A DNA stretch of 64,000 nt from Polyangiales bacterium (GTDB taxonomy: Bacteria; Myxococcota_A; Polyangia; Polyangiales; Polyangiaceae). The stretch is from assembly GCA_038231275.1 (NCBI GenBank), contig JBBRLQ010000003.1, positions 108,340 to 172,339 of the forward strand. Direction: 5' to 3'. Under the pieces are notes generated by a model. The model saw nothing but the letters and a program-made list of their open reading frames with translations, had not been told where the DNA came from and made no database searches. Shown here in pieces: positions 29,597-40,400 of this stretch (position 1 is the stretch's first letter; each line of letters begins with the position of its first letter). A program made the translations under genes and the position numbers.

Positions 29597-30862
29597 GTGG
29601 TACCGTCACGGTCAGGTGGGATGGCGATGAGGTTTCTGTACGGCGATTCGAGCCCGTTTCCGCTGCAGTACAACTTCCTGCAGACCCTCGAGGTCTTCAT
29701 GGCGTCGGGGACTCGCATCGTCGAGCTCGACGCCCAATCGCGCCGCGCGCAGACGCAGATCGGCGAGAGCTCGAACATGCGCGTGCGGGGGGTCGAAGCG
29801 CTCGACAACTTCCACCAGGCCGTCATGCGCGCGCTCAGGGACACGTCATCCCGCGCGACCGACAGCCTCACCGTCGACTACGCCCAGCAGCTCTCCGAGT
29901 ACGCCAACCGAATCGTCGAGGGGGCGCGCGCGCAGGCCACGTCGGCCACCGAGCGCGAGCTCGCGCAGGCCAACGCCGAGACCGAGCGCCGCCGGGTGGA
30001 AATCCGCGGCGCGATCGAAGCGTTCTTCAAGGTCGCGAAGCTGCCGGTCCTCGGCGCCACGATCGCGATGCGCCTCCCGCTCGCCAAAGAGCCCACGCAC
30101 GAGATGAGCGCCGTCATCTCGTTCGCGGAGGGCATCGTCGTCGGCTACACGCTCGTCGGCGACGCGCTCCCCGAGTGGCGCCACCCGCGAAAAATCAGCG
30201 AGTTCGCGCAAGGCATCAACCTCATGGTGGGCGCCAAGAAGAGCTGGTTCAAGAAGAGCGTCCAGCCGGAGCTGGTCGCCCTCGACGACCACATCTTGAG
30301 CGGCTTCGAGCTCTCGGACGACGCGGCGTTCCTCCGTCTCCGCAAGCGCCCCGAGCTGCCCGACGCGTACCTCTTCACGGTCCGCCGCGTCGACACGAAC
30401 CTCCTCGCGGAGGTCCAGTACGTCGACGATCCGGAGGCCCAGGGCCAGATGCCGACCGCCGTCGACGCCGGTGACCGCGTGCACCTCGAGCGCCTCTGGC
30501 AAATCCTGAGGAAGAGCGTCAACCCCGCCCTCGAGCACAAGACGCGCGTGGTCTCGATCCACCTCGACGGCGAAGAGATCTTCGCGAGCGACAAGGTCCT
30601 CGCCCTCGTCACGCGCCTCATCAAGATGCTCGCGCCGACGGTCGCCGAGATCGCGCGCCGCAGCCCGAACCAGCAAGAGCTGTCGCTCAAGATCGAGCAC
30701 GACGGCGGCCGTCGCGAAGAGATCTACGTGAAGAAGCAGGATCTCGTCGCCAAGCTCATCCCCCTCGCGCCGCCGGAGATCCAGGTCTTCGCCCCGCTCG
30801 CGCTGGGCCAGGCGGAGCCGTCGGTGATCACCACGATCCCGACGATCTCCACGGAAGACTGA
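29597..30862 (+). CDS. Hypothetical cytoplasmic protein immediately upstream of the MVP homologue
   Basis: 421-aa ORF with good coding look and no recognisable domains. Alternative starts at 29621 and 29627. Confidence 0.55.
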   Translation: MVPSRSGGMAMRFLYGDSSPFPLQYNFLQTLEVFMASGTRIVELDAQSRRAQTQIGESSNMRVRGVEALDNFHQAVMRALRDTSSRATDSLTVDYAQQLSEYANRIVEGARAQATSATERELAQANAETERRRVEIRGAIEAFFKVAKLPVLGATIAMRLPLAKEPTHEMSAVISFAEGIVVGYTLVGDALPEWRHPRKISEFAQGINLMVGAKKSWFKKSVQPELVALDDHILSGFELSDDAAFLRLRKRPELPDAYLFTVRRVDTNLLAEVQYVDDPEAQGQMPTAVDAGDRVHLERLWQILRKSVNPALEHKTRVVSIHLDGEEIFASDKVLALVTRLIKMLAPTVAEIARRSPNQQELSLKIEHDGGRREEIYVKKQDLVAKLIPLAPPEIQVFAPLALGQAEPSVITTIPTISTED

Positions 30863-30989: not shown

Positions 30990-33011
30990 ATGACCGATCG
31001 CGACGTCCGCGAACGCGACATCCTCGTCGCCTCCAACGAGTACGCTTACGTGCAGGATCTCACCAAGGGCGACATCGTCCTCTACGTCGGGCCGACCAAG
31101 ATCAGCCTGAGCAACACCGAGCGCCTCGTGGACTTTCGGAGCGATCGCTTCGTGCCCGTGCGCAGCGACGACGGCGGGCTCGGCGTGAACCCGTTCGTCG
31201 CCGCGTCGTCGTCGCAGTACATCATCGTCGAGAACCCGACCAGGGACCCGACGCAGCGGCCGATCAAGGGGAGCAACGCGTCGATCGAGCTGCTCTCGGG
31301 GCGCAAGATCGTGGTCCCGGGTCCGGCGACGTTCCCGCTGTGGCCCGGCCAGCGCGCGAAGGTCGTCGACGGCCATGAGCTCCGCGAGCGCGAATACCTC
31401 GTCGTGCGCGTGTACGAGCAAGCGCCCGGCGACGAGCGGCCGATCGGCACCGAGATCATCGTGCGCGGCTCCGACACGAGCTTCTACATCCCGCGGACCG
31501 GCCTCGAGGTCGTCGCCACCGCGCAGGGCTACGTCCGCCTCGCGTGGCACCTCACGAAGAACACAGGGCTCCACGTGCGCGTGGTGAAACCGCACGTCGC
31601 TGCCGAGGGCGATCAGCTCCCTGCCGGCACCTACGCGGCGGGGACCGAGGTCTTCATCCACGATCGCGAGGGCTTCTTCTTCCCAACCGAGAGCCTCGAA
31701 GTGAAGGACATCGTCTTCGCCATCCCGCTCGCAGAAAAAGAGGGCATCTACGTCCGCGACATCGAAACCGGGCGCATCACGACGATCGCCGGCCCGTGCA
31801 GCTACCTCCCCGATCCCACGCGCGCGCTCGTCATCGAAAGGCGCCTCGCGCCGGAGCTCTTGGCGCTGTATGGGATCCATCCGGACGCGCGCGAGCGTGC
31901 GCTGTCGATCTACATTCCTCCCAGCTACGCGGTCCTCGTCATCGCGAAGAACAAGCGCGAGGTCGTGAAGGGTCCCGTCACGCGCATCCTCGCGTTCGAC
32001 GAGGAACTCGAGATCTTGCGCCTCTCGACGGGGCGTCCGAAATCCGACGAGGCGCTCCTCCCGACGTGCTTCCTCCAGATCGAGGGCAACAAGGTCAGCG
32101 ACGTCGTGCGCGTGAAGACCGCCGATCACGTCGAGCTGGAGATCGCGCTCTCGTACCGCGTGTCCTTCGTCACCCAAGGCGCCGAGGCGACGGACGCGGC
32201 GCGGTGGTTCCACGTGAAGAACTACGTGGGCCTCCTCTGCGATCACCTCGGCTCGATCCTCCGCGCCGCCGCCCGTGCCGCACGCATCGACGCGTTCCAT
32301 TCGTCGAGCACCGAAATCCTGCGAAGCGCAATTTTGGGCGAAAAACACGGGGAATCGCCGCGCGAGGGGCGCACCTTCGAAGAGAACGGGATGTGGGTCT
32401 ACGACGTCGAGGTCCTCGACGTGCGCATCCTCGATCAGGACGTGAAGAAGCTCCTCGAGGGCGCGCAGCGCGCCGGCATCGTCAGCGAGGTGAATCGCCG
32501 GCAAGAAGAGCTGCGCCTCTCGAGCGAAAAATTGAAGGAGGAGGTCGATCGCCAAATCTTCGCCTCGCAGATCGACACGATGCGGATGCAAGCCGAGCTC
32601 GAGGGCGCGCGGCGGCAGGTCGTCCTCGCGCAGGCGAGCTCGGCGATCGAGTCGCACAAAGTCGAGCGCGTCGGAAAAGCGACGAACGACGCCGAGGCCT
32701 TCACCATCTCGACCCGCGCGCGCATCGCGGCGGCGGAGCAAGACGCGGCGATCGAGGCGCTGCGCTTGTCGGGTCAGGTGGGCGCCTTCAAAGAACAGAT
32801 GGCCGCGATCCATCCCGAGCTCGTCGCGACGCTCAAGACCCTCGGCCATCAACAGCTCGCCGCGGAGCTGTCTCGAAATGTATCGCCCCTCGCGATCCTC
32901 GGCGGCGAGAGCGTGACCGACGTGGTCGAGCGCCTCCTCGGCTCTCTCCCGATCGGCTCCTCGGCGGCCCACGACGTGAAAAAGGTCCTCGCGATCCCAA
33001 AGACAAAATGA
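30990..33011 (+). CDS. Major vault protein (MVP) homologue, bacterial
   Basis: Colinear similarity to eukaryotic MVP from memory: [25 protein letters not shown] vs [35 protein letters not shown] vs [28 protein letters not shown] vs TADHARLQLQLAYNWHFEV. Shoulder/SPFH-like region and C-terminal coiled-coil cap helix are present. No signal peptide. Confidence 0.8.
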   Translation: [673 protein letters not shown]

Positions 33012-33075
33012 CCAAAGCCGACCTGGTACCCAGGACCTTCAGGTTAAATGACCAAAGCCGACCTGGTTACCCAGG
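33006..33075. repeat. Two copies of a 29-30 bp direct repeat (aaatgaccaaagccgacctggt[t]acccagg), the first containing the MVP stop codon
   Basis: Seen directly. Each copy contains a small palindrome cctgg-N3/4-ccagg. Confidence 0.6.
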
Positions 33076-33089
33076 CCGGCTTGGAGAAG

Positions 33090-35490
33090 TCACGTTGTCT
33101 CGTGGTGGGCGCAGAGGTTTATGCGCCGCTTGTGCCCGCCTCCAGGCTTTCGCCCTGAGGCTGTTCGGGAAATCTCTCGCGCGCCTTTCGCGTCGAGGGA
33201 CCACGGACCCTGCGGTCAAGCATTACGGCCTGCCGCCATCTATCGTTCGGTGAGGGAGCCTGCTCGGCCCACGGCCATTCGCGTGGCGTGGAATCGCGAG
33301 AGGTGCGTGTTGCTGTTCGCTTCACGCGCTTCGGTCAATCTCGCCCCTGGCGCATCCCTTTGCGTTCGTCTGCAGGCGCTCCGTCGAGCTCACCTGCACG
33401 TCTCGCCGCTTTCGCTGCGAGCCGCGGATGCTGATCCCTCGCGCTTGGTGTCGCCCACCACGCTGGAGGAACCTGAACCAGAAGGTACCGACCTCTGACG
33501 TCCATTGTCGTTTCTCGGGCACGGATCACCGGCTCCAGCCGACTCACCGCTGCCCCAACCGCACGCTGCACTACCTCGTTTTACGGAGACGATGCGTCAC
33601 GAACGACCGGAGGATTCACCCGAAAAACCAGCACCGCCTCGCGCCCCGCCCGTAAAGGCAAAAGCGTCTGAACGATGCAAGACGTCTGAAACAGTCACCA
33701 TGAAGTCCTACGAACCTTTGGCATTCGCAGGGCCCAATCATGCGCCTCATCTGGGAGGATTTGCGCGCACGACCAGCGCACCCGTTCGCCTCTGCTTCCT
33801 CACCGTCCGCGTCAGTCGCGGGGTCTCCGCACTCGGACCGGTGAACTTGCTCGGGCTAGGTCCCGCACCATCGAGCCGCCTTGCAGCAAACCCGGGGAAC
33901 GAGATCATAGATACGTCTGAGCTGTTTCTGCTTCCCTACACTCCGTCAACGAGCACCCGTACCTGGCTCTTTCCGGCTCATCGACACCGACTCTTCATCG
34001 GGCGTGTTCTTCAGTGGGATGTCGCCCACCGAAAACCGGAGATCCGCGCGTTTCACGACGCGCGTTGATCGCTTCGGTGAATCGCCTTCGCACTAGGGGG
34101 CTTGTTGGGCCGACCACGCACGCGACGACTTACCTCTGACGCCCCTGTCGCGATTCTCTCTTCGATACCAGGTCGTGCATTTTCGCGGTGCACGATTGCC
34201 GATTCGGAGAGACTCGCCGAGACCGCTTCTACCCCGCCGCCGTGACGCGACGAAGCTTTTCCCGGTCCAGAGCGCCTTCGTTCGACGGGAGATGCGCTGC
34301 TCTTCTTCCGCTCTCTCGAGCGGCGATTGCGCACCCTGTGCCCCGTGGATTTGCCCTGCGAGAGCTCCTCCTCGGGTCCCGAGCTGTCCTTTTGGGACAA
34401 CCCGGGCCGGCCTTGCGTGGTGTTGCGCACCCCGCCCGCCGGGAATCGGTCTTCGTGTCACCTACGGCTCCCTCCACCACGAATGACGTTCGCAGTGAAG
34501 AGCCTCGTTCGATTAGCGCGGGCCGCCTGGAACAGCGGACTCGACTAGGAACGATTCGTTACATCCGTAGGCTAGGCCCCCGTCCACCGCGTCCCCCGGT
34601 CCCTCTTTCGAGCGACTACGTAGTGGGGGAAGGGCGTCTCTGAGCCAGTACCTGACCGCCTGTCGACTTCTGCAAATGAGACATACAGCGTACGGGCACA
34701 TCCACGAGATCGCTTCCGCGCCCGCCTCGAGACTCCGTTCTTCTTGCGAAGCGTAGAGCCCCCATGCGTTTGCCGATCACGAGCACAGGGCCGGTTTTTG
34801 AGGCCGAGCCTGCACGCCGTGGGCAGCGCGCCGTGAAAAGTACGAACGAAGCGGATTCGCTTCGCCCACCCCGCCTTCTTATGCGCCCCGCTGCACGTTG
34901 CCGTGCAACTAAGACGTTTCGACGACGGGGCCGAGGTACAGCCACGGACCGACTGTCCTGAAGTGAAGGGCTCGCAGCCTTTTGGGCATTTTGCGAGCTC
35001 CCCTCCTTCGAAGGCAGCCGAGCATCCCTCTGTCGTCAGCTTGCTGCCGCGAAAGCCTGGAGTGCTTTCGCCGCGCCTCGCGTGGTCCATCGCGCCAAGT
35101 TTCCCTGGCGGAGAGGGGCCGCGGTTGGCCTCACATGCTGACCGAGATCTTCATTCCACCGCCCTCCCGCGAAGGCGGACGGTTTGCGCGAAGACCAGGG
35201 TGCTTTCCACCGATTGTCCCGAGCGCGTGCGGGGGTCGCCCCCTTTGCGCGCTCGCTCGGTCTCTCCGTCACGCCGCCCCTGAGGGGCATTGCGATCGTG
35301 AGACCAGCGCCTTTTTTTACCGCGGTACCAGCCGCCTCGCCCTGACGAGCCAAGCGTTTTGAGTTGCTGGTGCGGTTCAGTGGGTCGGGTTGGAAGGGTG
35401 TTGATCTTCCAGGGTCCGGCCTGCTGCAGCGCCCTCTCGGTTTCTACGATGCGTACTCGCTCGCGGATTGATGTGCCGCGAACTTCTGAA
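33090..35490 (-). ncRNA. Degenerate LSU (23S) rRNA-like region (relic pseudo-rRNA or highly diverged structural RNA)
   Basis: No ORF longer than 190 codons on either strand for about 3.1 kb. The reverse complement is colinear with bacterial 23S rRNA as recalled, for example tttttaccgcggtaccag vs TTTTCCTCGGGGTACTTAG near the 5' end, cggggtctccgcactc vs CGGGGTCTTTCCGTC, tttcacgacgcgcgttgatcgc vs TTCACGACGGACGTTAGCAC, and acggatcaccgg vs ACCGGATCAC. Similarity is only about 60%, and the universal motifs (sarcin-ricin loop, GCTACCTTAGGACCGTTATAG) are not intact. Confidence 0.45.
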
Positions 35491-35499
35491 GCAATAGAT

Positions 35500-35760
35500 A
35501 TCGAATCCCCCTAGACCGCACAACACAAAAAGAACGACTCAATCACTTTTTTTATCCACAGGTTGCCCACCGGAATTGTCCACAGGGTTTCCCCCGAAAA
35601 CGCGAAATAGCGCCTGTTTTCTCGCAAATTCGAGCGAGTTTTGAGAGACAGAAATGGCCTACAATTGTTTGATTGATGCAATTGATTGGCATGCCAATTC
35701 AAAACAATCGTGTTTCATTTGCTGTTTGAATGAGTGATTGAGAAATAGTGGTGCACGGTG
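35500..35760. promoter_or_regulatory. AT-rich island with two DnaA-box-like 9-mers and palindromic caattg/ttggcatgccaa elements
   Basis: TTATCCACA at 35552-35560 and TTGTCCACA at 35576-35584, same orientation, both followed by GG. GC content here is about 40% against about 68% in flanking DNA. The island lies at the 5' side of the 23S-like region relative to the minus strand. Confidence 0.4.
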
Positions 35761-36195
35761 CGGCGAAATCGCGCGCGGCCGCGAAAAGACGCTGGGGATC
35801 GCGTCTGGGTCAGGGGTGCGACACAACCGGAAAAGTGCACATGGAGAGGTCCCCTGCGCGCACCGTGGGAGCGAGGGCGTGTATCGGGGAAGTTGAGCGC
35901 GCGTGACGCCGTCGTGAACGCACGAGGTGGGAAGGTTCGGGGCGCGCCCCCGTAGGACCCAAGAGATGCCGCGCGTGCGCCACGACTGTGTCGTCTTCTC
36001 GGTTCCGGCGCTTCCCCCGGGCTACGTCGCACCTTCACCCACCCTCCTCTCGCCCTACACGCGCGAGCCGGAGCGGGTGCAGCGCCCGCTCCCCGAAGCG
36101 TGGCAGTCGAAGCGTCCGTGCCTCGCGTTTCCGGCCGTTTCCGCGGAGATCGTGGCCGCGCTCAACCGTTCCTGCTGAGGCCTGGCGCTCGGTTC

Positions 36196-37365
36196 CTACG
36201 CGGACGCCGAAGGCTCGTGATGCCTGGCAGCCTCGAGGCCGTGGGCCGCGATGTTCGTTCGCCAGCGGAAGCGCTCGATCGTTTTGCCGGCGACGGCGTC
36301 GGCGATCCACTTGCCGACGAGCGGCGCGAATTTGAAGGCGTGGCCCGAGCCGCCGGCGGCGACGACGAGGTTCTTTCGATCGGGATGGCGATCGATGAAG
36401 AAGTGCTCGTCCTTCGTGTCGCAGTAGATGCAGACGCGCGTGGCCGCGATCGGCGCGTGCTCGAGCGCGGGGAACGTCTCGCGGAGGAATTGGCGGAGCG
36501 CGGGCTCGTCGTCGTCACGCAGCGCGCGCGGGCCGTCGGGATCGCAGGCGAAGCCAGGGCCGTGGTTGGCGATCTTGACGAGGCCGTTCGGGGTGACGGG
36601 AAAGCCGTAGTAGCCGGTGCGCGCGATGTCGGCGCCGAACGTGGGGAAGCGGGCGGCCTCGAAAATGCGCGGATCGCTCGGGCGCAGGTGGAAGACCGAC
36701 TGCGCCGTGGCGAACAAGTCATTCTGAAGCTCGGGGAGGAGCTTCGACGTCCATGCGCCCGCGCAGAGGACGACGGTGTCGGCGGTCAGCTTGGTACCTC
36801 CTTGATCGATCACGCCGTCGTCCACGATACGCGCGGCGCGAAAGCCCTCGACGATGCGCACGCCGACGCGGAGAGCTTCCGCCGCAAGGCGGGCCACGAC
36901 GCGACCGCTCTCGGCGAATCCTCCCACGCGATTGAAGTAGCCGTCGGTGTACGCGCCCGTGCTCCATGCGGGGAAACGGGCGGCGAGCGACTGCGCGTCG
37001 AGGCGCTCCAGCTGATGGCCGCGCTCGACGAGGAGCTCGAACGAGTCGTGCTCGAAGCCTCCCTTCTTCATCTCGCCGCGCGCGACGTAGAGGACGCCGG
37101 TCTCGTGGAAGAGCGATTGGCCGTTCTCGGCGACCCAGCCGCGGTCCCACGCGCGCCAGCCTTCCATCGCGTCTTCCATCATCGCCGAGTAGGTGACGTC
37201 CGCGCCGTAATCCATGCGCACCGCTTTGCTGAGGTCGGTGGACTCGGCGTCGGGGTACGGAATCGGACCGGGATCGGTGAGCGTCACGTCGTCGCCTCTT
37301 CGCCGGAGCTCGAGCGCCGCGGTGACGCCGAAAATACCCCCTCCGCACACGAGGACCGACGCCAT
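36196..37365 (-). CDS. FAD-dependent oxidoreductase (DAO/sarcosine oxidase-like family)
   Basis: N-terminal GxGxxG Rossmann motif (VCGGGIFGVTAALEL); DAO-family length and C-terminal motifs. Confidence 0.85.
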   Translation of the reverse strand: MASVLVCGGGIFGVTAALELRRRGDDVTLTDPGPIPYPDAESTDLSKAVRMDYGADVTYSAMMEDAMEGWRAWDRGWVAENGQSLFHETGVLYVARGEMKKGGFEHDSFELLVERGHQLERLDAQSLAARFPAWSTGAYTDGYFNRVGGFAESGRVVARLAAEALRVGVRIVEGFRAARIVDDGVIDQGGTKLTADTVVLCAGAWTSKLLPELQNDLFATAQSVFHLRPSDPRIFEAARFPTFGADIARTGYYGFPVTPNGLVKIANHGPGFACDPDGPRALRDDDEPALRQFLRETFPALEHAPIAATRVCIYCDTKDEHFFIDRHPDRKNLVVAAGGSGHAFKFAPLVGKWIADAVAGKTIERFRWRTNIAAHGLEAARHHEPSASA

Positions 37366-37433
37366 CCTCTCACCCTACAGGATCGCGCCGACGGCTGATG
37401 GCTTGCTGACCGCTTCGTGTACGATGAGGCTGC

Positions 37434-40400
37434 GTGGACGGACGTCTCGTCATCGCTGAGCGCTTCGAGATCGAGCACCTCGTCGGTACGGGCGGGATGG
37501 GCGAGGTCTTTCGTGCGAAGGACCGCCTGACGGGCGGCCCGGTCGCGATCAAGCTCTTGCACCCCGGGATGACGCGGGATCAGGAGCGCTTCCGGCGCGA
37601 AGCGCAGCTGTTGGCCGAGCTCTCGCACCCACGCGTCGTTCGCTACGTCGCGCACGGCATCGCGAGCGGCGGGCGACCCTACATCGCGATGGAGTGGCTG
37701 GAGGGGCTCGATCTCTCCGATCGTCTCTCGCACGAGGGATTCACGCTGGACGAGGCGGTCACCCTTGCGCGGCGCGCGGCCGAGGCGCTCGGCGCATTGC
37801 ACGAACGCGGCATCGTCCACCGCGACGTGAAGCCCTCGAACCTCTTCCTCGTTGGCTCCGATCTCCACAGCGTGAAGCTGCTCGATCTCGGCATCGCGCG
37901 GCTCTCGACGCCGACGCGGCCGGCGACGCGCAGCGGGGTCATGGTGGGCACGCCGGGGTACATGGCGCCCGAGCAAGCGCGCGGCGCCAAAGAGATCGAC
38001 GCGCGGGCCGACGTGTTCTCGCTCGGCTGCGTCCTCTTCGAGTGCATCGCGGGGCGACCGGCGTTCGTGGGGGACAACGCGGCAGCGCTCCTCGCCAAGA
38101 TCTTGCTCGACGAGTCCCCGCGCATCCTCGACTACCGGAAGGACGCGCCGCCGGAGCTCGACGATCTCGTGTCGCGTATGCTGGCGAAGCATGCGGGCGC
38201 GCGTCCGGCCGACGGGCACGCGGTCGCGCGGGAGCTCGCGCAGATCGCGCGCGGCGGGCTCGATTCGCAGCGGCGGAGCAGCATTCGTGCGCTGCGCGCG
38301 ATCACCGGCGGGGAGCGGCGCCTCGTGAGCATCGTGATGGCGTCCTCCATCCTCACGCCGGTCGAGACGCCGGTCGACCTTGCGGCGGAGACGCTGACTG
38401 GCGACACGTCGGTCGCGTCGCTCGACATGCGCAGCGTCGTCGCACCGTTCGGCGCCAAGTTCGAGAGCCTCGCCGATGGGTCGGTCGTGGTGGCCGTGAC
38501 GGGGAAGGGCAGCGCGACGGATCAAGCGGCCCACGCGGCGCGCTGCGCGTTGGCGATTCGCGCGCACATGCACGACGCGCACATGGTCTTGGCGACGGGC
38601 CTCGCGACGGTGACCGATCGCACGCTCTATGGCGACGTGCTCGATCGCGCCGCGGCGCTGCTCGTCGAGGCGCGACGGGCCTTCGCGCAGGTCGGGCCCG
38701 ACGGGACCGTGAAGAGCGCGCCGCTCCCGCTGCCGGTGCGCCTCGACGAGACGACGGCGGGCTTGCTCGATCTCCGTTTCGACGTCGAGGGGGACGACCT
38801 AGGGCTGACGCTGCGAGGCCCGCGCGCCGAGGAAAGCCCGACGCGGACGCTCCTCGGCATGGCGACGCCGTTCGTCGGGCGCGACCGCGAGCTCGCGACC
38901 CTGCACGGGCTCGTGGAGGAGTGCATCTCGGAGCCGGTCGCCCGCGTCGTCCTCGTGACGGCGCCGCCAGGAGGCGGGAAATCACGCCTCCTCCACGAGC
39001 TCCTCCTCCAGGCGCGGAACCTCCACGACAATGTCGAGGTGTGGCTCGCGCGCGGCGATCCGATGAGCGAGGGCTCGCCGTTCCACATGCTCGCGCAGGG
39101 GATCCGGCGCGCGTGCGGCTCGGTCGAGGGAGAGCCGCTCGCGGTTCGTCGGCAGAAGCTGCGTGCGCGTGTCGCCCGGCACATCGAAGGAGACGAGCTC
39201 ACGCGCGTGACGGAGTTCGTCGGCGAGCTCGTCGGCACGCCGTTCCAGGGAGACACGAGCGTGCAGCTCCGCGCCGCGCGCCAGGACGCGATGCTGATGG
39301 GTGACCAGATGCGTCGCGCGTGGGAGGACTGGATCGCCGCGGAGTGCCTCGCGCAGCCGGTCGTGATCGTCCTCGAAGATTTGCAGTGGGGCGATCTGCC
39401 GAGCGTGAAGCTCATCGACGCCGCGCTCCGCAACCTCTCCGAGCTGCCGCTCCTCGTCGTCGCGGTGGCGCGTCCCGAGGTGCACGAGGTGTTCCCCAAC
39501 CTCTGGTCGGAGCGCGGGCTTCAGGAGGTGCGCCTCGGGCCGCTCGTGAAGAGCGCCAGCGACCGTCTCGTTCGTCAGGTCCTTCCCGACGCCACCCAAG
39601 AGGAAGTGACTCGGCTCGTCGAGCGCTCCGCCGGCAACGCGTTTTATCTCGAAGAGCTGATTCGCGCGGTCGCCGAGGGTCGCGGCGGCGAGCTACCAGA
39701 GACGGTGCTCGCGATGGTGGAGGCACGGCTCGAGCGGCTCGAGCCCGAGGGGCGGCGGCTGCTGCGCGCCGGGAGCGTCTTCGGGCAGGTGTTCTGGCGA
39801 GGCGGCGTCGCGGCGTTGCTCGGTCAGTCGCTCCGCGCGAGCGAGGTCGACGAGTGGCTCGGCGAGCTCGTCGCGCGCGAGATCCTCCTCCAGCGACGCC
39901 GCTCGAAGTTTCCAACGGACGCCGAGTACGCGTTCCGGCACGCGCTGGTGCGCGAGGCGGCGTACGCGATGCTGACGAGCGAGGATCGCGCGCTCGGGCA
40001 CAAGCTCGCCGGCGAGTGGCTCGAGGAGGCGGGCGAGACCGACGCGGTGGTGCTCGCCGAGCACTTCGACCGCGGGGGCGTGCCCGCGCATGCGGTGAGG
40101 TGGTACCGCCGCGCCGCCGAGCACGCGCTCGAGGGAAATGATTTCGAGGCGGCGACGGCGCGCGCCGAAGGGGCCATCGCGGCGGGCGCGGCGGGCCAGG
40201 AGCGCGGCGCCTTGCGGCTGCTCCAGGCGAGCGCGGCGGACTGGAACGGCGACACCGCCTCGGCGATTCGCTTCTCCGAGGAGGCGCTGCATGATCTCAC
40301 TCCGGGCACCGACGACTGGTACCTCGCGGCAGGCGAGGTCGCGCTCGCGAGCCGAAAAATGGGCGATTTCGAGCGCGTCAACGCGGTGGGCCGCGCGGTG

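Follow-up and report, generated by a model that had tools for sequence, protein, structure and literature searches.

The ORF-free region and its reading strand

[quoted passage not shown] The gap had been read in an initial annotation as a minus-strand relative of 23S rRNA at 33090–35490. The evidence presented here indicates that the minus strand from 35478 to 33089 is very probably a free-standing gene whose product is a very large structured non-coding RNA of a new family, found in a clade of the Myxococcota. The genes of the locus are as follows.

30990 to 33011, plus strand: MVP homologue, convergent with and abutting the RNA gene (Pfam MVP_shoulder, 2e-32)
33089 to 35478, minus strand, 5' end at 35478 and 3' end at 33089: proposed mature RNA of about 2,390 nt (contig ends, homologues)
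35966 to 36178, plus strand: orphan 70-aa ORF, divergent from the RNA (orthologues in the same position)
36196 to 37365, minus strand: DAO-family FAD oxidoreductase, synteny anchor (Pfam DAO, 7e-54)

Between the stop codons of the MVP homologue (33011) and the DAO gene (36196) the longest ORF has at most 187 codons, and the ORF-free region of the initial annotation is thus real. Codon-position GC periodicity is lost from about 33030 to 35800, the spread being at most 0.27 against 0.33–0.60 within the MVP gene, and nowhere else in the 64 kb is there an aperiodic stretch of 600 nt or more; the GC content of the region drops to 0.61–0.65. No ORF longer than 50 aa is intact across all seven sequences compared, and in each pairwise comparison 19–57 out of 23–60 indels are not multiples of three. 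The ORF-free region is non-coding. A small protein gene hidden within the RNA was considered and rejected, the sole ORF intact in all sequences being one of 34 codons on the opposite strand, in an invariant block. As had been proposed, the region should be read on its minus strand, which is rich in purines (G 0.34, A 0.21) and has 10 hairpins capped by GNRA or UUCG, versus 2 on the plus strand.

Relationship to 23S rRNA

Colinearity with 23S rRNA, at about 60% similarity, had been claimed from a series of landmarks. Global alignment to E. coli rrlH scored -4.5, against -18.9±11.1 for shuffled copies, with 73% identity over the aligned columns (shuffles, 74%), and the local matches to rrlH were non-colinear with E>1. 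The Rfam covariance search, which had been suggested as a check, gave no match in the window at gathering thresholds, and no LSU or SSU match on 32500–36500 with permissive filters at E≤10; the same library recognised, at 559 bits, a fragment of eukaryotic LSU in a chimeric contig (L130). A blastn search (word size 11) of 28 Gb of E. coli genomes returned nothing at E≤1. The landmarks therefore lie at chance level. Since covariance model, blastn and global alignment all fail to detect a relationship to 23S rRNA, the element is not a decayed rRNA relic, a demonstrably rRNA-derived RNA or a transferred rRNA fragment, the three origins that the initial annotation had offered; its suggestion of a structural RNA is borne out by the covariation-supported fold described below. 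The annotated lack of 16S and 5S neighbours also holds, no rRNA or tRNA family being found by Rfam anywhere in the window.

Homologues and conservation

The homologue search used as its query the translation of one spurious 192-aa ORF. At least 30 "hypothetical protein" clusters of 78–326 aa proved to be mis-annotations lying on the RNA, and these led to the homologues; a Pfam domain was present in none of 30 such clusters. Seven distinct full-length homologues are 75–91% identical, RNA identity being 85.7% for L123, 90.8% for L125 and 81.0% for L126. The neighbouring DAO gene is 63–67% identical at third codon positions (65–67% in these three lineages) and 80–93% at positions 1 and 2, and the RNA is as conserved as the latter; sequence upstream of about 35620 is hardly alignable among the homologues. 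The RNA is under strong purifying selection, equal to that on DAO codon positions 1 and 2, and is not decaying.

No family of Rfam 15 matched the window or five of the homologues, and literature searches yielded no description of the RNA, so that this 2.4-kb folded non-coding RNA of soil myxobacteria is apparently undescribed. In being non-coding, conserved beyond neutral expectation and rich in compensated helices it resembles the large structured bacterial ncRNAs, a descriptive class and no family by homology. An origin of its three similar-sized domains by internal triplication was rejected, local alignment scores being those of shuffled sequences.

Evidence for recovery as RNA, and ends of the molecule

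Contigs from at least ten Logan runs (L133–L142), together with L143, start at window-equivalent positions 35478–35475 and end at 33084–33092, and contigs of about 2.39–2.41 kb coincide with the element in many runs. In L133 the 3' end passes directly into the Illumina adapter AGATCGGAAGAGCGTC, while in the L130 chimera eukaryotic LSU rRNA is fused at the base adjoining the 5' end of the RNA. Three features speak for libraries made from RNA, namely the shared contig ends, the junction with the adapter and the chimera with rRNA. They are strong but indirect evidence that a discrete RNA, about 2.39 kb long, was recovered from the environment. Its ends, 33089 and 35478, match almost exactly the limits of 33090 and 35490 that had been annotated.

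Predicted secondary structure

A consensus fold was derived using RNAalifold on a 2706-column alignment. Because the fold comes from the same seven related full-length sequences on which it was evaluated, some measures are inflated. The fold comprises 836 pairs with 95.9% of cells paired (95.8% for the first 417 pairs). Double changes were found in 71 of the first 417 pairs, against 30.5±3.7 in shuffles (none of 500 reached 71) and 9–24 in slid controls, and in 80 pairs of the second half, against 35.6±4.3. The whole structure thus contains 151 compensatory double-change pairs (shuffles 66.8±5.6; slid controls 20–38). In an independent single-sequence MFE structure of the window, 193 of 253 double changes (76%) keep pairing, compared with 25–47% in slid controls. 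G·U accounts for 12.5% of paired cells and A·C for 1.1%, which fixes the strand as minus. The fold contains 43 hairpins, about a third of them of GNRA type and varying within the GNRA consensus; the insertions specific to single lineages are GNRA-capped hairpins too, and in helix 25 both sides have changed in 9 of the 12 pairs. The predicted elements are listed below.

35477 to 35487, minus strand: predicted terminal helix, 5' strand, closing the whole molecule (RNAalifold helix 1; mature 5' end inside)
34700 to 35468, minus strand: predicted domain I, 769 nt, five branches (consensus fold, covariation)
33953 to 34699, minus strand: predicted domain II, 747 nt (consensus fold)
33243 to 33952, minus strand: predicted domain III, 710 nt, five branches (consensus fold, covariation)
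33095 to 33236, minus strand: predicted small 3' hairpin domain with an invariant UAAACCUC loop and a GNRA loop (consensus fold)
33085 to 33094, minus strand: predicted terminal helix, 3' strand (mature 3' end, 33089, inside)

The covariation-supported model is thus one of a terminal 5'/3' helix that would enclose three domains of about 700–770 nt and a small 3' domain. The terminal helix, in which alignment columns 16–26 pair with 2648–2657, is invariant and hence compatible with the data yet unproven by covariation, as are, for the same reason, the long-range domain-defining helices (1, 2, 3, 16 and 34). The mature ends fall on opposite strands of the terminal helix, staggered by 2–4 nt.

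Flanking signals

The sequences bordering the RNA gene carry the following features.

33006 to 33045, no strand: window-specific 40-nt tandem duplication of the terminator tail, supplying the MVP stop codon
33046 to 33082, minus strand: intrinsic terminator with a 12-bp stem and a GUAA loop, followed by UUUGGUCAUUU (sequence, conserved hairpin)
35495 to 35523, minus strand: candidate promoter, TTGTGC, 17 nt, TATCTA (conserved in five lineages; weak sigma-70 match)
35552 to 35584, minus strand: two CCTGTGGAnAA direct repeats, 24 nt apart (conserved in five lineages)
35600 to 35760, no strand: AT-rich island in the divergent intergenic stretch that separates the RNA gene from the small ORF (GC 0.43–0.52)

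The terminator hairpin is maintained by compensatory changes, and its loop is always GNRA (GUAA, GCAA or GCGA) in five lineages. The duplication beyond it, which the homologues lack, leaves a perfect direct repeat of 22 nt, with copies at 33006 and 33046. A consensus promoter scan did not call the candidate promoter at 35495–35523. The proximal of the two upstream repeats is a perfect DnaA box (TGTGGATAA) with a conserved A-tract next to it; the number of DnaA boxes in the window is not significant (3 matches versus 1.1 expected). The AT-rich island, conserved in patches only, lies on the upstream side of the minus-strand transcript (GC 0.43–0.52 at 35460–35700), as the initial annotation had noted.

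Neighbouring genes

The convergent arrangement of MVP homologue and RNA recurs in the L126/L127 lineage, where the MVP proteins share 76% amino acid identity and the MVP stop codon lies within the RNA terminator stem. Adjacency to MVP is found in two of the four lineages with a known downstream flank, other genes being present in L123 and L131. Further MVP loci were fetched (57 from GTDB, 63 from JGI), and no homologue of the RNA was detected at them by blastn, nhmmer or tblastx; the tblastx "sum" E-values at MVP loci were artefacts of high-GC composition. A profile nhmmer search of 121 other MVP loci, about 1.5 Mb in all, likewise did not find the RNA. The idea of a general MVP-associated RNA was rejected, the non-coding stretch following MVP in L028 being an unrelated tandem array of units of about 105 nt and that in L040 being unique. 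The linkage to MVP may be merely inherited, since the synteny also takes in unrelated genes (DAO, kinase).

On the other side, the window, L123, L125 and L126 all have the DAO gene upstream of the RNA; this gene serves as a synteny anchor and is not put forward as a functional partner. Orthologues of the orphan 70-aa ORF occupy the corresponding place in L125/L132, L126/L127 and L131, and the ORF is missing in L123. It has only four representatives among 1.84 billion proteins and no match in Pfam or NCBIfam; its product is a possible partner or regulator of the RNA.

Alternative explanations

Gene callers have placed ORFs of 78–326 aa on the element in at least 30 protein clusters, as might be expected of a frameshifted pseudogene or of unusual protein-coding DNA, but codon periodicity is absent, the ORFs are not conserved in frame, indels ignore multiples of three, Pfam domains occur in 0/30 clusters and conservation is uniform, third positions not being spared; the likelihood of a coding origin is vanishingly small. 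Nor is it credible, save at the very margin, that the element is a decayed or highly diverged 23S rRNA, whether as a relic, as an RNA derived from rRNA or as a transferred fragment. An rRNA-like size, purine richness, many GNRA loops and a multi-domain fold shut by a 5'/3' helix are what such an origin would leave, and in L130 the LSU covariance-model alignment reaches about 90 nt into the element, with many non-canonical pairs; against it stand the lack of an Rfam LSU/SSU match even at E≤10, the lack of a blastn match in any E. coli genome, an alignment to E. coli 23S no better than shuffled controls with non-colinear local matches at E>1, and strong purifying selection in place of decay. Equally implausible is an element acting at the DNA level, be it an origin of replication, a regulatory sequence or a nucleoid site: the AT-rich island and the perfect DnaA box adjoin the element and cumulative GC skew has a local minimum near 35500, but compensatory pair changes and the excess of G·U over A·C are properties of RNA, the contig ends are RNA-like, one contig joins an adapter and another is chimeric with rRNA, and the number of DnaA boxes is not significant. 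A replication origin was rejected as such, GC skew across the window showing no origin-type switch.

Many copies of the large RNAs GOLLD and ROOL are phage-associated, and a large structured RNA with a 22-nt direct repeat at its 3' edge and variable neighbours on the 3' side could likewise come from an element that is mobile or selfish, whether a group II intron or retroelement without an ORF, or a phage or satellite RNA. The repeat is, however, a tandem duplication specific to the window, and synteny on the DAO side is constant in four lineages. Phage, integrase and reverse transcriptase genes are absent near the RNA, Rfam group II intron models (like the rest of Rfam) gave no match and the element has no conserved ORF, and two invariant motifs of the RNA are absent from the 2.9 million viral contigs of IMG/VR, so a mobile origin is very improbable. 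Somewhat more room must be left for the possibility, which we nevertheless regard as improbable, that the neighbouring MVP homologue builds a bacterial vault-like particle and that the RNA is part of this particle or carried in it as cargo. The MVP gene is convergent and abutting both in the window and in L126/L127, whose RNAs are 81% identical, and eukaryotic vaults are ribonucleoproteins (bioRxiv 10.1101/872010). Set against this are the other downstream genes in L123 and L131 and the RNA's presence in 0/121 other MVP loci. Eukaryotic vault RNAs, moreover, are of about 100 nt and unrelated.

Proposed function and significance

For the preferred reading, a free-standing structured RNA, the following course may be envisaged. 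Transcription would start from the conserved promoter region with its two upstream repeat sites and stop at the GNRA-capped intrinsic terminator. The primary transcript would then be trimmed inside the terminal helix, by analogy with rRNA precursors, presumably by a double-strand-specific nuclease, as the staggered ends in that helix suggest. Acting in trans, the stable product would supply the structural core of a large particle, made either of RNA and protein or of RNA only, a role preferred over those of mRNA leader, antisense RNA or sponge; the clade-restricted divergent 70-aa protein and the adjacent MVP homologue would be its candidate partners.

From its size, its structure and its recovery as RNA we infer a scaffold or particle role for the molecule. 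To our knowledge, RNAs this large and complex have so far always been machines, either ribosomes or self-splicing introns. The boldest version, that the RNA is the core of a new ribosome-scale ribonucleoprotein or RNA-only machine of the Myxococcota, perhaps residing in or organising an MVP vault-like shell and maturing at its terminal helix in the manner of rRNA, is put forward as a conjecture and is unlikely. The RNA also offers, for the first time, a concrete candidate for an RNA with a link to the gene of a bacterial MVP. With the sequence, the ends and seven homologues in hand, it is open to cryo-EM, probing, pull-down and genome searches. One practical consequence is that public catalogues contain at least 30 clusters of "hypothetical proteins" that are spurious, having been called on an RNA.

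Comparison with known systems

Vault RNAs are transcribed by Pol III, measure about 100 nt and have no similarity to the new RNA. What is shared with the eukaryotic vault, an RNA-containing ribonucleoprotein particle (bioRxiv 10.1101/872010), is an MVP-family gene beside the RNA gene in two lineages, known here as gene adjacency; the MVP-RNA linkage is not universal.

Group II introns, RNase P RNA and large ribozymes resemble the new RNA in having multi-domain folds with abundant GNRA tetraloops, but it is three to six times longer and has no Rfam match at any threshold; in contrast to group II introns, it also lacks flanking exons and a reverse-transcriptase ORF. With 23S/LSU rRNA it has in common a comparable length, purine richness, several domains closed by 5'/3' pairing with the mature ends within the terminal helix, and recovery in environmental RNA samples. 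It differs in having no detectable homology to rRNA, no accompanying 16S, 5S or tRNA genes, and a distribution restricted to a narrow clade.

There is also a likeness to the large "ornate" bacterial non-coding RNAs GOLLD, ROOL and OLE (PMC12286853, PMC12054373), of about 600–800 nt. Like them, the new RNA is free-standing, highly structured and non-coding, has many covarying helices and tetraloops, is mis-annotated as small ORFs by gene callers and has no known catalytic or regulatory mechanism. The covariance models of GOLLD, ROOL, OLE and HEARO in Rfam matched neither the window nor any of five homologues, and the new RNA is not related in sequence to GOLLD, ROOL or OLE. Unlike GOLLD and ROOL, the new RNA is chromosomal and syntenic in Myxococcota; unlike OLE, it has no OLE-type partner gene set; and it measures about 2.4 kb rather than roughly 600–800 nt. 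Recent structures of RNAs of this class revealed unexpected RNA-only cages. The largest structured bacterial non-coding RNAs outside the ribosome that we know of are OLE, ROOL and GOLLD, at about 600–800 nt, and the new RNA is, as far as we know, longer by a factor of about three than every structured RNA of bacteria except rRNA. A conserved, covariation-supported RNA of 2.4 kb, present in many environmental RNA samples, would therefore constitute a new size class.

A gene-free interval beside the vault protein homologue

The initial annotation had pointed to a lack of long reading frames between the major vault protein (MVP) homologue and the next gene, and this was borne out, the longest ORF in the gap being 187 amino acids or less. 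The boundaries are:

30990–33011, plus strand: MVP homologue (Pfam MVP_shoulder, 2e-32)
33089–35478, minus strand: the predicted structured RNA discussed below
36196–37365, minus strand: DAO-family oxidoreductase (Pfam), the next gene past the gap

Codon-position GC periodicity, which marks every gene elsewhere in this genome of ~68% GC, is lost from ~33030 to 35800; no other non-periodic stretch of 600 nt or more occurs in the window, and such stretches are also rare across ~1 Mb of related loci. The GC content of the gap is 0.61–0.65, with an AT-rich island (0.43–0.52) at 35460–35700. Its minus strand is purine-rich and contains 10 hairpins capped by GNRA or UUCG loops, compared with two on the plus strand and 0–6 in equal-sized pieces of the remaining window.

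The same region had been described as colinear with and about 60% similar to 23S rRNA, a relation which failed every direct test (Rfam, blastn, global and local alignment). Rfam 15 at gathering thresholds gave no match in the window, and a covariance-model search of 32500–36500 with permissive filters revealed no LSU or SSU match at E≤10. BLASTN (11-nt words) returned nothing at E≤1 from the full set of complete E. coli genomes. Global alignment of the gap region to E. coli rrlH scored −4.5 (shuffled copies, −18.9±11.1) with 73% identity over aligned columns (shuffles, 74%), while the few local matches to rrlH all had E>1 and were not in colinear order. The resemblance noted earlier is of the level expected from any two purine-rich, GNRA-loop-rich sequences.

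Homologues and sequence constraint

No sequence similar to the RNA region was present at ~120 MVP-homologue loci from genomes and metagenomes. Homologues were reached by two other routes. The neighbouring DAO protein, used as query, has relatives at 79–86% identity, and the contig that encodes one of these (L123) also contains a homologous counterpart of the entire region; window 33046–35620 is 85.8% identical to it over 2582 nt, the DNA identity of the flanking DAO and kinase genes being lower (81–82%). The second query was the translation of a spurious 192-codon open frame of the region, which matched "hypothetical proteins" in 30 clusters, all without a Pfam domain, in JGI, ENA and Logan assemblies; their contigs yielded seven distinct full-length RNA sequences, mutually 75–91% identical, together with partial ones. 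The seven constitute alignment A2. At least 30 "hypothetical protein" clusters of 78–326 aa (P0121–P0167), from metagenome and metatranscriptome assemblies, are spurious ORFs called on the RNA. A further Logan contig (L058, SRR19962015) is 100% identical to window 35749–37985 and breaks within the AT-rich island that precedes the RNA gene.

No ORF of more than 50 codons is intact across all seven A2 sequences, and indel lengths are almost all non-multiples of three (57 of 60 in the comparison with homologue L130). The RNA of the window is 85.7%, 90.8% and 81.0% identical to those of L123, L125 and L126, respectively; in the same lineages the third codon positions of DAO are 65–67% identical and the first and second 80–93%, which places the constraint on the element at about that on the amino acid-determining positions of the enzyme. 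Upstream, beyond ~35620, the sequence is scarcely alignable between lineages. By these comparisons the region is non-coding and under strong constraint.

Predicted secondary structure

RNAalifold analysis of A2 gave a consensus fold of 836 pairs. Among the first 417, 95.8% of cells are paired and 71 pairs are changed on both sides, a count reached by none of 500 shuffles (30.5±3.7) and falling to 9–24 when the 3' partner was slid by 1–3 columns; for all 836 pairs there are 151 double changes, against 66.8±5.6 in shuffles and 20–38 in slid controls. Since the consensus fold was built from the very sequences on which it was tested, the test was repeated on the minimum-free-energy fold of the window alone, in which 193 of 253 double changes preserve pairing (76%; slid controls, 25–47%). 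Within predicted pairs G·U cells (12.5%) far outnumber A·C cells (1.1%), which identifies the minus strand as the RNA strand. Loops of GNRA type cap about one in three of the 43 hairpins and vary only inside the GNRA consensus, and lineage-specific insertions are further hairpins with GNRA caps. Judged by covariation, the constraint acts on RNA secondary structure.

In the predicted architecture, three domains (769, 747 and 710 nt) and a small 3' domain lie within a terminal helix and a further closing helix; local alignment found no sequence-repeat relation among the three. The long-range helices are invariant, so that covariation gives them no confirmation.

Signals and ends of the RNA

The signals bordering the element on the minus strand are:

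35576–35584 and 35552–35560, minus strand: two CCTGTGGAnAA repeats, the one at 35552–35560 being a perfect DnaA box, TGTGGATAA
35523–35495, minus strand: candidate sigma-70-like pair TTGTGC-17-TATCTA (weak match)
35487–35477 with 33094–33085, minus strand: predicted terminal helix (consensus fold)
33082–33046, minus strand: putative terminator, a GUAA-capped 12-bp hairpin and then UUUGGUCAUUU (from sequence)

Conservation across five lineages extends over ~130 nt upstream of the RNA, a stretch which includes the candidate promoter. This was not called by the consensus promoter scan. The CCTGTGGAnAA repeats, 24 nt apart and followed by an A-tract, are kept in five lineages at ~65–95 nt before the RNA 5' end and could be a site for DnaA or another regulator. 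The terminator stem is maintained through compensatory changes, and its loop remains GNRA in five lineages. The terminator tail is duplicated in tandem over 40 nt, as an exact 22-nt direct repeat shows (33006–33067); the duplication is absent in all homologues, and its first copy supplies the MVP TGA stop and a second, weaker hairpin.

Logan contigs from at least 10 runs (L133–L142) are 2393–2413 nt long or shorter; all begin at the equivalent of 35478–35475, and the full-length ones finish at 33084–33092. Many more catalogue contigs of the family measure 2.33–2.40 kb, and L143, of different sequence and from another run, begins at the same base. In L133 the last RNA base runs directly into the Illumina adapter AGATCGGAAGAGCGTC, which requires that a molecule physically ended there. 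The ENA contig L130 (ERZ21878053, NODE_314909, coverage 67) is chimeric at positions 1–711: eukaryotic LSU rRNA of ~620 nt (Rfam, 559 bits) is joined to the RNA at the base adjoining its 5' end. Joins of this kind typically arise as artefacts of cDNA synthesis or assembly when both RNAs are present in one library. Contig ends, adapter junction and chimera strongly suggest that the element was recovered as a discrete ~2.39-kb RNA in many environmental samples. In the predicted terminal helix its two ends fall on opposing strands with a stagger of 2–4 nt, a geometry suggestive of trimming by a nuclease specific for double-stranded RNA, like that in rRNA maturation.

Neighbouring genes

29597–30862, plus strand: 421-aa gene directly upstream of MVP, without Pfam family; weak coiled-coil-like NCBIfam match to ATP synthase B (E=3e-4, far under cutoff)
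35966–36178, plus strand: 70-aa orphan ORF (MPRVRHDCVVF...RPCLAFPAVS...), divergent from the RNA

In four lineages DAO lies upstream of the RNA. Between the two stands a ThiJ/DJ-1 gene in L123 (1614–2474) and L125 (1622–2494), and a cupin gene in L126 (819–1190); neither occurs there in the window, to which no more than 44 nt of the L123 spacer still align, as a remnant at 35865–35908. Four lineages have the 70-aa ORF, divergent from the RNA, and L123 lacks it; its product has no Pfam or NCBIfam match, and its family has four representatives among 1.84 billion proteins.

MVP is convergent with the RNA and abuts it in the window and in the L126/L127 lineage, where its frame enters the opposite-strand RNA terminator and the TAG stop lies within the stem (L126 4334–4360, L127 3352–3378), so that the convergent genes share a terminator. 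The linkage is suggestive. It is not general, since in L123 and L131 other genes occupy that position. The 421-aa gene may be co-transcribed with MVP. Directly downstream of an MVP homologue, a Myxococcota MAG has ~12 tandem units of ~105 nt unrelated to the RNA (L028, 12150–13390), and a Kofleriaceae MAG has 2 kb without codon periodicity (L040, 11990–13950) and without similarity to the RNA or other compared loci. A search of 2.9 million viral contigs found neither of two invariant motifs of the RNA.

Interpretation and comparison with known RNAs

The element is very probably a genuine new structured RNA gene. It would be transcribed from its own promoter to its own terminator, trimmed inside the terminal helix and, acting in trans, would form the structural core for a large RNP or an RNA-only particle. 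An mRNA leader is disfavoured because no co-directional gene lies behind the RNA, which the terminator closes. Against an antisense RNA or a sponge stand the size and conservation of the fold, both too great for such roles, and the dominance of tertiary-contact loops in it. That this putative trans-acting RNA works with the adjoining MVP homologue is improbable.

No Rfam 15 family fits the ~2.39-kb RNA, and literature searches, incomplete in coverage, yielded no description of it; within that coverage we rate it as a new class, unprecedented in size for a bacterial non-ribosomal RNA. It is most closely comparable to GOLLD, ROOL and OLE, the "ornate" RNAs (PMC12286853). The RNA differs from these three in having no sequence or model similarity to them and in being about three times their length.
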